In this document: in pieces, positions 60,501-64,000 of the stretch
Position numbering within the stretch: position 1 is the first letter of the stretch
How the letters are laid out: each line of letters opens with the position of its first letter
NCBI RefSeq assembly: GCF_054482595.1
Contig: NZ_CM137008.1
Direction: 5' to 3' (one strand)
DNA length: 64,000 nucleotides
Program-made: the position numbers

Positions 60501-63500
60501 AATAAAGGCGATTTAAGTTTCCCTGCGCAGCAAAAATCACTTATCGCGCTGGCAAATAAAGCAGTTAGCGGAAGCGGCGTTGGCGAACTCTCCTCTTCCA
60601 GCCTGAAACGCTGGAGTGCGGAAAACTCGGTAACCATGAGCAGTAAAGTCAGTGGCATGAATACGTTGCTCTCCGTTAGCGCGCGGACTAATAACCCTGA
60701 ACCTGGTTTCCAGTTGATTAACCAGCGAATCACCCACAGCACGATTAACGACAATATTTGGGCATCGCTACAAAATGCTCAAATTCAGGCGTTGAAAACG
60801 CTCGACCAGCGTCCAGCGGAGAAATTCGCCCAGCAGATGTATGAGACGCGCTATGCTGATGACCGCACGAAATTACTGCAAGAAAATCAGATTGCACAGT
60901 TTACTGCCGCAGATGCGCTGGCTGCCGATCGCCAGTTGTTTTCATCTCCAGCGGATATCACGTTTGTCATTGTCGGTAATGTCGCAGAAGACAAACTCAT
61001 GGCGTTAATTACGCGTTACTTAGGCTCAATCAAACACTCTGATTCGCCATTAGCCGCAGGTAAACCATTAACTCGCGCGACGGACAACGCATCGGTTACT
61101 GTAAAGGAACAAAATGAACCCGTGGCACAGGTTTCACAGTGGAAGCGTTATGATTCCCGGACACCTGTTAATCTGGCGACGCGTATGGCGCTCGATGCTT
61201 TTAACGTCGCACTGGCAAAAGATCTACGCGTTAATATTCGTGAACAGGCATCTGGGGCATACAGCGTTTCTTCTCGCCTCTCGGTTGATCCTCAGGCCAA
61301 AGATATCAGTCATTTGCTGGCTTTTACTTGTCAACCAGAACGACATGATGAACTGTTAACGTTAGCGAATGAAGTGATGGTTAAGCGTCTGGCTAAAGGG
61401 ATCAGTGAGCAAGAACTGAACGAATACCAGCAAAACGTTCAGCGCAGCCTCGATATCCAACAGCGTAGCGTTCAACAATTAGCGAACACTATTGTAAATA
61501 GTCTTATTCAATATGACGATCCTGCAGCATGGACTGAGCAGGAGCAATTGTTGAAACAAATGACGGTAGAGAATGTTAACACTGCCGTTAAACAATATCT
61601 TTCTCATCCGGTAAATACTTATACCGGAGTATTATTGCCTAAATAATAACAGCCCCGTCAACACATCGTTGGCGGGGATTTTAGCAATATTCGCTATTTT
61701 TATGTAATAATTTTATAAATGCGTTCAAAATAATAACCAAGTACTAATAGTGATATTTTAAGGTCTGATTTTTACGTGATAATTCAGGAGGCACAGAATG
61801 CGCATAAAAATAACAGCATAAAACACCTTACCACCACCCAAGAGCTCTCTACTATATTGTTTTTCAATGAAAAAATATTATTCACGCAATATCTCACCAT
61901 AAATAACATTAGGATTTTGTTATTTAAACACGAGTCCTTTGCACTTGCTTACTTTATCGATAAATCCTACTTTTTTAATGCGATCCAATCATTTTAAGGA
62001 GTTTAAAATGGATAAGAAGCAAGTAACGGATTTAAGGTCGGAACTACTCGATTCACGTTTTGGTGCGAAGTCTATTTCCACTATCGCAGAATCAAAACGT
62101 TTTCCGCTGCACGAAATGCGCGACGATGTCGCATTTCAGATTATCAATGACGAATTATATCTTGATGGCAACGCTCGTCAGAACCTGGCCACTTTCTGCC
62201 AGACCTGGGACGACGAAAATGTCCACAAGTTGATGGATTTATCCATTAACAAAAACTGGATCGACAAAGAAGAATATCCGCAATCCGCAGCCATCGACCT
62301 GCGTTGCGTAAATATGGTTGCCGATCTGTGGCATGCGCCTGCGCCGAAAAATGGTCAGGCCGTTGGCACCAACACCATTGGTTCTTCCGAGGCCTGTATG
62401 CTCGGCGGGATGGCGATGAAATGGCGTTGGCGCAAGCGTATGGAAGCTGCAGGCAAACCAACGGATAAACCAAACCTGGTGTGCGGTCCGGTACAAATCT
62501 GCTGGCATAAATTCGCCCGCTACTGGGATGTGGAGCTGCGTGAGATCCCTATGCGCCCCGGTCAGTTGTTTATGGACCCGAAACGCATGATTGAAGCCTG
62601 CGACGAAAACACCATCGGCGTGGTGCCGACTTTCGGCGTGACCTACACCGGTAACTATGAGTTCCCGCAACCGCTGCACGATGCGCTGGATAAATTCCAG
62701 GCCGACACCGGTATCGACATCGACATGCACATCGACGCCGCCAGCGGTGGCTTCCTGGCACCGTTCGTCGCCCCGGATATCGTCTGGGACTTCCGCCTGC
62801 CGCGTGTGAAATCGATCAGTGCTTCAGGCCATAAATTCGGTCTGGCTCCGCTGGGCTGCGGCTGGGTTATCTGGCGTGACGAAGAAGCGCTGCCGCAGGA
62901 ACTGGTGTTCAACGTTGACTACCTGGGTGGTCAAATTGGTACTTTTGCCATCAACTTCTCCCGCCCGGCGGGTCAGGTAATTGCACAGTACTATGAATTC
63001 CTGCGCCTCGGTCGTGAAGGCTATACCAAAGTACAGAACGCCTCTTACCAGGTTGCCGCTTATCTGGCGGATGAAATCGCCAAACTGGGGCCGTATGAGT
63101 TCATCTGTACGGGTCGCCCGGACGAAGGCATCCCGGCGGTTTGCTTCAAACTGAAAGAGGGTGAAGATCCGGGATACACCCTGTACGACCTCTCTGAACG
63201 TCTGCGTCTGCGCGGCTGGCAGGTTCCGGCCTTCACTCTCGGCGGTGAAGCCACCGACATCGTGGTGATGCGCATTATGTGTCGTCGCGGCTTCGAAATG
63301 GACTTTGCTGAACTGTTGCTGGAAGACTACAAAGCCTCCCTGAAATATCTCAGTGATCACCCGAAACTGCAGGGTATTGCCCAACAGAACAGCTTTAAAC
63401 ATACCTGATAACGTTTAACGGTAACGGTGTCCCGAAACGAACCCGTTTCGGGACAATTTCCAAAGTCTGTTCACTGGCATTAGCAACGGAAAATATTGTT

Positions 63501-64000
63501 CTGAATACGCTTCAGAACAAAACAGGTGCGGTTCCGACAGGAATACCGTTTTAGGGGGATAATATGGCTACATCAGTACAGACAGGTAAAGCTAAGCAGC
63601 TCACATTACTCGGCTTTTTTGCCATAACGGCATCGATGGTAATGGCTGTTTATGAATACCCTACCTTCGCAACATCGGGCTTTTCATTAGTCTTCTTCCT
63701 GCTATTAGGCGGGATTTTATGGTTTATTCCCGTGGGACTTTGTGCTGCGGAAATGGCCACCGTCGACGGCTGGGAAGAAGGTGGTGTCTTCGCCTGGGTA
63801 TCAAATACTCTGGGGCCGAGATGGGGATTTGCAGCGATCTCATTTGGCTATCTGCAAATCGCCATTGGTTTTATTCCGATGCTCTATTTCGTGTTAGGGG
63901 CACTCTCCTACATTCTGAAATGGCCAGCGCTGAATGAAGACCCCATTACCAAAACTATTGCAGCACTCATCATTCTTTGGGCGCTGGCATTAACGCAGTT

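Follow-up and report, generated by a model that had tools for sequence, protein, structure and literature searches.

What does a strong RNA hairpin that lacks a U-tract do between two co-transcribed genes? This question is raised by the last 5 kb of a 64,000-nt stretch of DNA (RefSeq assembly GCF_054482595.1, contig NZ_CM137008.1; hereafter the window, whose positions are used throughout), which represent the pqqL-gadB-gadC region of Escherichia coli. The spacer between gadB and gadC (63409-63563, 155 nt) carries no annotation in the RefSeq genomes checked. A preliminary description of the window had noticed a perfect stem-loop in this spacer, had pointed out that no T-run follows it, and had offered three roles for it, namely a stabiliser of the gadB message, a partial attenuator or a barrier to RNase processing. 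We consider it reasonably probable that this stem-loop, here called hairpin 1, fixes the position at which a gadB-only mRNA ends and protects this end. The evidence comes from a published RNA 3' end that maps to its base and from the evolution of its structure within the genus Escherichia.

Hairpin 1 and the RNA 3' end at its base

The stem-loop is indeed perfect and lies within the gadB-gadC spacer; however, its size and borders had to be corrected. It had been described as an 11-bp stem with a 6-nt loop, but one further G-C pair closes, which results in 12 bp and a loop of four nucleotides, and the coordinates 63409-63563 that had been assigned to it comprise the entire spacer, while the hairpin itself only occupies 63428-63455. 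Seven of the 12 pairs are G-C. The folding energy, whose calculation had been proposed as a check, is predicted to be -22.4 kcal/mol in a 46-nt context (z = -4.8; 0 of 200 shuffles were equally stable) and overall amounts to about -20 to -22 kcal/mol. For the complete spacer, an energy of -50.8 kcal/mol (z = -4.5) is predicted. Perfect hairpins of at least 12 bp with a loop of 3-8 nt are rare: three are present in the window, compared with a mean of 0.025 in dinucleotide shuffles. The lack of a T-run was confirmed, since the tail ATTTCCAAAG (also given as AUUUCCAAAG) begins with AUUUCC and a terminator scan gives no call. A canonical intrinsic terminator was hence rejected: the GC-rich stem-loop is present, but the U-tract of about 7-9 nt is absent. 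A repetitive extragenic palindromic (REP) element or bacterial interspersed mosaic element (BIME) was also dismissed, as hairpin 1 is found at one place per genome (median) in 5405-5407 of 5426 E. coli genomes and is unrelated in sequence. A permissive cmscan of positions 61600-64000 against Rfam 15 revealed no match at the spacer and one chance-level match elsewhere in the region.

Using Term-seq, Adams et al. (2021) mapped RNA 3' ends of strain MG1655, and one of these, found in M63 glucose medium at an optical density (OD) of 0.4, is a minus-strand end at position 1570594 (Supplementary file 1 of PMC7815308, sheet M63 0.4). It has 33,816.8 reads on average, was assigned to the class 'orphan' and was left uncharacterised (PMC7815308). 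Its 61-nt context is identical to window positions 63409-63469, and because the context in these tables extends from 50 nt ahead of an end to 10 nt past it (PMC7815308), the end can be placed on the last U of AAUUU at window position 63459, 4 nt past the stem. For window position p near the locus, the minus-strand coordinate in MG1655 is 1634053 - p; this conversion rests on a K-12-like record and on the K-12 gadC start at 1570489, which has TTTTAGGGGGATAAT directly ahead of it. The classification as 'orphan' is explained by the position of the end 51 nt past the stop codon, since the authors' limit for 'primary' ends is 50 nt (PMC7815308). The same sheet also contains the end of the gadC terminator, which is located at 1568900, has 70,553 reads and is formed by GGGAGCGAU-AAUUC-AUCGCUCCC-UUUUUC (PMC7815308). 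Both ends are present in one sample; therefore, a gadB-only end and a full-length end coexist, and the block at hairpin 1 is partial. Mapping of 3' ends had been proposed in the preliminary description, with the lack of an end at the site as the outcome that would speak against a function. The published data instead contain a strong end at 63459, 4 nt past the stem, with 33,817 reads in M63 glucose (PMC7815308).

The 3' end is thus already public but uninterpreted, and the element is of a textbook kind. No description of the hairpin, its sequence or gadB-only transcripts was present in the literature searched, which did not cover older gadBC sequence and Northern studies, so that an early mention is possible. 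The supplement of the SMRT-Cappable-seq study has no entry for gadB or gadC, and the gadB-gadC spacer is unmentioned in the paper on CsrA and the gad genes.

Selection on the structure of hairpin 1

The spacers that were aligned are those of E. coli strains, two divergent Escherichia lineages, one metagenome variant and Escherichia albertii; a metagenome scan yielded 14 loci with one new stem variant. The loop is the most variable spot of hairpin 1 and exists in six sequences, AACC, AAGC, CACC, CUCU, CUCC and CAUC, the last of which is that of E. albertii. The loop-closing pair is open in one E. coli lineage, and A-U or G-C pairs have changed to G-U in two lineages. In E. albertii, 13 of the 30 hairpin columns (43%) differ from E. 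coli; the helix is nevertheless kept, with a predicted energy of -20.6 kcal/mol, and contains three compensatory pairs, one in which U-A became C-G and two in which A-U became G-C. Every Escherichia variant of hairpin 1 folds at -18 to -21 kcal/mol. For comparison, the four-fold degenerate sites of gadB and gadC show a divergence of 27-31% between E. coli and E. albertii, and when the E. coli hairpin was randomly mutated at this rate, the observed stability was retained in only 0.1-0.4% of trials. Because stability has been kept in spite of such divergence, the alignment shows that hairpin 1 is under selection for its structure, with its sequence being free to change. G-U pairs are tolerated, and selection therefore points to the RNA. 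Taken as a group, the three roles offered in the preliminary description are supported by the 3' end, the partial block and the structural selection, and these data do not separate one role from the other two.

Outside of Escherichia, gadB-gadC spacers are unrelated in sequence, and many of them are only 14-40 nt long and have no hairpin. Several longer spacers hold a strong hairpin of their own, again without a U-run, namely those of Hafnia (L005), Yersinia ruckeri (L006), Serratia sp. Ag1 (L018), Lamprocystis (L026) and Mesopusillimonas (L079), and the perfect core stems of the spacer hairpins across these five genera range from 7 to 17 bp. The core stem has 12 bp in Hafnia paralvei and 16 bp in Y. 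ruckeri, with energies of -28.7 and -31.4 kcal/mol, respectively, when flanking pairs are included, and the hairpin of Mesopusillimonas has 17 bp and reaches -32.4 kcal/mol. This comparison among gadB-gadC spacers suggests that the same device may have arisen independently more than once.

Probable protection of the gadB message and competing explanations

How could such a hairpin affect the two genes? If hairpin 1 works in the RNA, any transcript cleaved or halted in the untranslated 155-nt spacer would be trimmed back to the hairpin base, and the trimmed RNAs would persist as translatable gadB mRNA. RNA containing gadC would only be provided by full-length molecules, which end at the canonical terminator past gadC. 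The expected outcome would be more gadB than gadC message and, by analogy with other operons, probably also more GadB than GadC protein; an excess of gadB fits the pairing of an abundant soluble decarboxylase with a membrane antiporter. An endonuclease cut within 63460-63495 is a plausible source of the first end. The hairpin, the 3' end mapped 4 nt past it, the partial read-through and the selection on its structure are shown, and from there we infer the role as exonuclease barrier, the origin of the first end and the effect on the GadB:GadC ratio.

The closest parallel was described by Dar and Sorek (2018), who found that many steady-state 3' ends of E. coli are located directly past stable stem-loops without U-rich tails and presented evidence that such stem-loops protect against PNPase and RNase II (PMC6061677). 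Hairpin 1 resembles this class: it is stable, has neither a U-rich tail nor an upstream A-tract, and is directly followed by a precise 3' end, and the same barrier to PNPase and RNase II is proposed for it. In contrast, the ends studied by Dar and Sorek are those of Rho-terminated units with C-rich Rho utilization (rut) sites downstream, while hairpin 1 is located between co-transcribed genes and no C-over-G bias is found downstream of it. The barrier role is favoured because hairpin 1 agrees with the description of these stem-loops and their 3' ends in every feature compared.

Stabilising hairpins between cistrons are known from the REP elements of malE-malF, the hairpins of the Rhodobacter puf operon and the processing of papB-papA (papBA). 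A more recent example is reported for the cip-cel operon (PMC10311766). By analogy to these systems, hairpin 1 would be a stem-loop past the upstream, more needed cistron, which would lead to a stable upstream and a scarcer downstream segment. It differs from the malE-malF REP elements in that it is single-copy and unrelated in sequence.

Several points weigh against a protective role. The link between the hairpin and the half-life of the gadB mRNA or the GadB:GadC ratio is inferred, and the Term-seq end, taken alone, fits a termination site and a processed end alike. Moreover, the end lies exactly on the last U of AUUU, which is compatible with weak intrinsic termination, too. Neither the end at 63459 nor that of the gadC terminator is listed for lysogeny broth (LB) at an OD of 0.4 or 2.0 (PMC7815308), which we attribute, as an assumption, to low expression of gadBC. 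Rho loading as the upstream event is unsupported: positions 63456-63563 contain 20 C and 25 G, i.e., no C-over-G bias, and no Rho termination region is listed near the spacer in the LB tables of PMC7815308, a condition in which gadBC is probably poorly expressed. Finally, the double, compensatory changes of hairpin 1 come essentially from one lineage, E. albertii.

The partial block could also be the work of a leaky intrinsic terminator or attenuator, at which RNA polymerase stops at AUUU in some rounds, thereby directly lowering gadC transcription. This explanation is unlikely, but several observations agree with it: a strong stem with many G-C pairs is present, the RNA ends on the last U of a run of three, 4 nt past the stem, and the presence of both the hairpin end and the gadC terminator end is what partial termination predicts. 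Like known leaky internal terminators, hairpin 1 is thus a GC-rich hairpin inside an operon with partial read-through and an end in a short U-run. Its tail AUUUCCAA, however, has only three U in the first eight positions, and a scan for consensus terminators remained silent. The d-score, i.e., the classical terminator discriminant, here calculated with modern energy parameters, is -21 for hairpin 1 and +19 for the gadC terminator, and the T-scores are 1.5 and 4.0, respectively. The comparison with related bacteria argues in the same direction. The short U-run is not conserved: the E69 clade has an eroded version, AAAUUCC, and E. albertii has none (AAACUCC), with d-scores of -42 and -49, while the hairpin is retained in both, and the strong spacer hairpins of the other genera have no U-runs either.

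A further set of explanations arises from the spacer downstream of hairpin 1, which is conserved in a different manner. In the part from 63456 to 63495, four of 40 columns differ from E. albertii, compared with 13 of 30 in hairpin 1, and none of the aligned Escherichia sequences departs from the 24-nt block AAGTCTGTTCACTGGCATTAGCAA. Over the complete remainder of the spacer (63456-63563), 10 of 108 positions (9%) differ, as opposed to 27-31% at four-fold degenerate sites, and this part is hence about three times more conserved. Such conservation suggests a sequence-specific element, e.g., a cleavage site or a binding site for a small RNA (sRNA) or protein, and the spacer past hairpin 1 probably encodes something further. 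The segment 63460-63495 may be regarded as a candidate endonuclease cleavage site or regulator-binding site. It is followed by a second hairpin, which is absent from the preliminary description and is located 43 nt before the gadC ATG. The core of hairpin 2, CUGAA/UUCAG, does not vary within Escherichia; broken outer pairs occur in the E69 clade, in locus L087 and in E. albertii, and no compensatory change was found in hairpin 2 among the aligned Escherichia spacers. On the minus strand, the tail of hairpin 2 (UAUUUUCC) resembles that of a weak terminator; a function as antisense terminator was rejected, with a d-score of -24.5, and no opposite-strand 3' end with a 15705xx coordinate is present in the Term-seq tables (PMC7815308). 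When the spacer is folded to its minimum energy, AUUUCC, located directly past hairpin 1 (63456-63461), pairs with the Shine-Dalgarno region of gadC (GGGGAU, 63555-63560). E. albertii and the E69 clade could form a similar UCC-GGG pairing, but the pairing has no support from covariation. An internal gadC promoter was rejected as well, since the sole promoter-like match (63534-63563) shares positions with the ribosome-binding site and such matches are as numerous in this region as expected by chance.

It is therefore conceivable, if improbable, that the structured spacer controls the translation of gadC, either by pairing of AUUUCC with the Shine-Dalgarno sequence, with hairpin 1 setting the fold, or with hairpin 1 as the border of a processing cassette in which hairpin 2 guards the new 5' end of the gadC mRNA. 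The unusual degree of structure in the spacer (z = -4.5), the pairing of 63456-63461 with the Shine-Dalgarno region, the roughly three-fold stronger conservation behind hairpin 1 (9% against 27-31% at four-fold sites) and the second perfect hairpin 43 nt ahead of the ATG are all consistent with this idea. However, compensatory changes are confined to hairpin 1, a pyrimidine-rich hexamer can easily match a purine-rich Shine-Dalgarno sequence by chance, and several lineages have broken outer pairs in hairpin 2.

We see a slim chance that hairpin 1 and the conserved downstream sequence form a regulated switch, in which a factor sets how often cleavage or a stop occurs at 63459. This factor could be an sRNA or an RNA-binding protein, or pH or the translation status could act on the fold between AUUUCC and the gadC ribosome-binding site. 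If this were true, synthesis of the decarboxylase would be uncoupled from that of the antiporter depending on the conditions, and the convergent hairpins without U-runs in other genera would reflect a general design of gadB-gadC operons.

Processing hairpins that are cleaved by RNase III are known from phage T7 (R1.1 type) and from the rpsO-pnp spacer. Applied to gadBC, hairpin 1 would be extended by a weaker lower stem (approximately 63419-63427 with 63466-63476) and cut on the 3' side of the internal loop, which would result in a hairpin-ended gadB mRNA as at the early sites of phage T7; we regard this as very improbable. Windowed folding indeed adds around nine pairs across an 11-nt bulge in the 3' strand that contains the mapped 3' end, and in the lower stem of E. 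albertii an A-U replaces one G-U, which is compatible with pairing. The site would thereby resemble T7 R1.1 and rpsO-pnp in being an interrupted hairpin whose upstream product is hairpin-ended and extends a few nucleotides beyond the upper stem. In contrast to these sites, the perfect, continuous helix of hairpin 1 has only 12 bp, compared with about 20 bp or more of largely continuous helix, the bulge is wholly on one strand, and the lower stem is weak, lacks covariation and is absent from the consensus fold of the alignment. In addition, the RNase III sites of Gordon et al. (2017), among the entries listed, fall within the coding sequences of gadB and gadC and between gadB and pqqL, and none of them in the gadB-gadC spacer, with gad expression probably being low.

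A palindrome acting at the DNA level (e.g., as the operator of a dimeric protein, in recombination or as a cruciform) or a functionless neutral leftover is hardly credible: the palindrome is perfect and is located at the seam between gadB and gadC of different ancestry, but the RNA 3' end maps exactly at the hairpin base, the half-sites change freely as long as pairing is kept, G-U pairs are sensible only in RNA, the element is single-copy in 5405-5407 of 5426 genomes, and drift would have destroyed the stem.

Setting of the spacer and its possible meaning for acid resistance

The coordinates of the features discussed here are collected in Table 1. DNA of the locus was found in 5407 of 5426 complete E. 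coli genomes, with 95-100% identity and one copy each.

Table 1. Features of the gadB-gadC region in window coordinates (ORF, open reading frame)
Feature	Coordinates	Strand	Details
gadB ORF	61939..63408	+	translates to glutamate decarboxylase
gadB stop codon TGA	63406..63408	+	RefSeq annotates gadB and gadC flanking the matching DNA
Stop-to-hairpin spacer, 19 nt	63409..63427	+	tandem AACGGT repeat at 63417-63428
Hairpin 1, 12 perfect bp	63428..63455	+	arms 63428-63439 TGTCCCGAAACG and 63444-63455 CGTTTCGGGACA; loop AACC 63440-63443
Tail AUUU	63456..63459	+	last U 63459 = mapped 3' end (MG1655 1570594, minus strand), published Term-seq
Inter-hairpin segment	63460..63495	+	mostly unpaired in predicted fold, highly conserved
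Hairpin 2, 10 perfect bp	63496..63520	+	63496-63505 with 63511-63520; loop UACGC
gadC start ATG 63564-63566 and Shine-Dalgarno AGGGGGA 63553-63559	63553..63566	+	ORF = N-terminus of the GadC antiporter

The 19-nt gap between the gadB stop codon and hairpin 1 would be long enough for the hairpin to remain folded outside of a ribosome that terminates at the stop. The AACGGT hexamer in this gap is present in two copies in most strains and in three copies in the urinary isolate E. coli 368_BP0078 (locus L085); this looks like slippage-type length variation.

The two genes on either side of the spacer differ in their relationships. GadB of Hafnia and Yersinia is 82-89% identical to that of E. coli, and the N-terminus of GadC only about 44% (loci among L005, L006, L008-L018 and L079). 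For Mesopusillimonas faecipullorum the opposite was observed, with 86% identity for the N-terminus of GadC and only 60% for GadB. The gadB and gadC genes of E. coli hence have different nearest relatives, and the operon looks mosaic, with the spacer as the seam. The gadA paralogue loci of Escherichia (L007 and L039) have only TGATAAC after the stop in common with gadB; beyond this motif, the gadA copies have hairpins of their own, each with a T-rich tail. The likeness between gadA and gadB stops at the stop codon, and the spacer hairpin is therefore specific to the copy of the gadB-gadC operon.

The other two perfect 12-bp hairpins in the window are located at 9596-9623 and 49862-49892, which is 25 and 14 nt, respectively, past long ORFs that end at 9571 and 49848. 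Their tails, ATAACTAC and TACCTCAT, contain no U-tracts, and they may belong to the same class of 3'-end hairpins as hairpin 1; no 3' end matching either of them is present in the Term-seq tables of Adams et al. (2021).

GadB and GadC constitute the main system of E. coli for survival under extreme acid, and the two proteins are needed in very different amounts. Previous work on the regulation of gadBC was centred on the promoter. The principle of an intercistronic hairpin that shields the upstream message is textbook knowledge, so that the gain is local and not conceptual; within this frame, hairpin 1 would account for a published 'orphan' 3' end that had no explanation, and it is of relevance for the engineering of gadBC toward the production of gamma-aminobutyric acid (GABA). 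For the organism itself, a conserved element that acts post-transcriptionally within the operon would provide a further layer that sets the ratio of enzyme to transporter.

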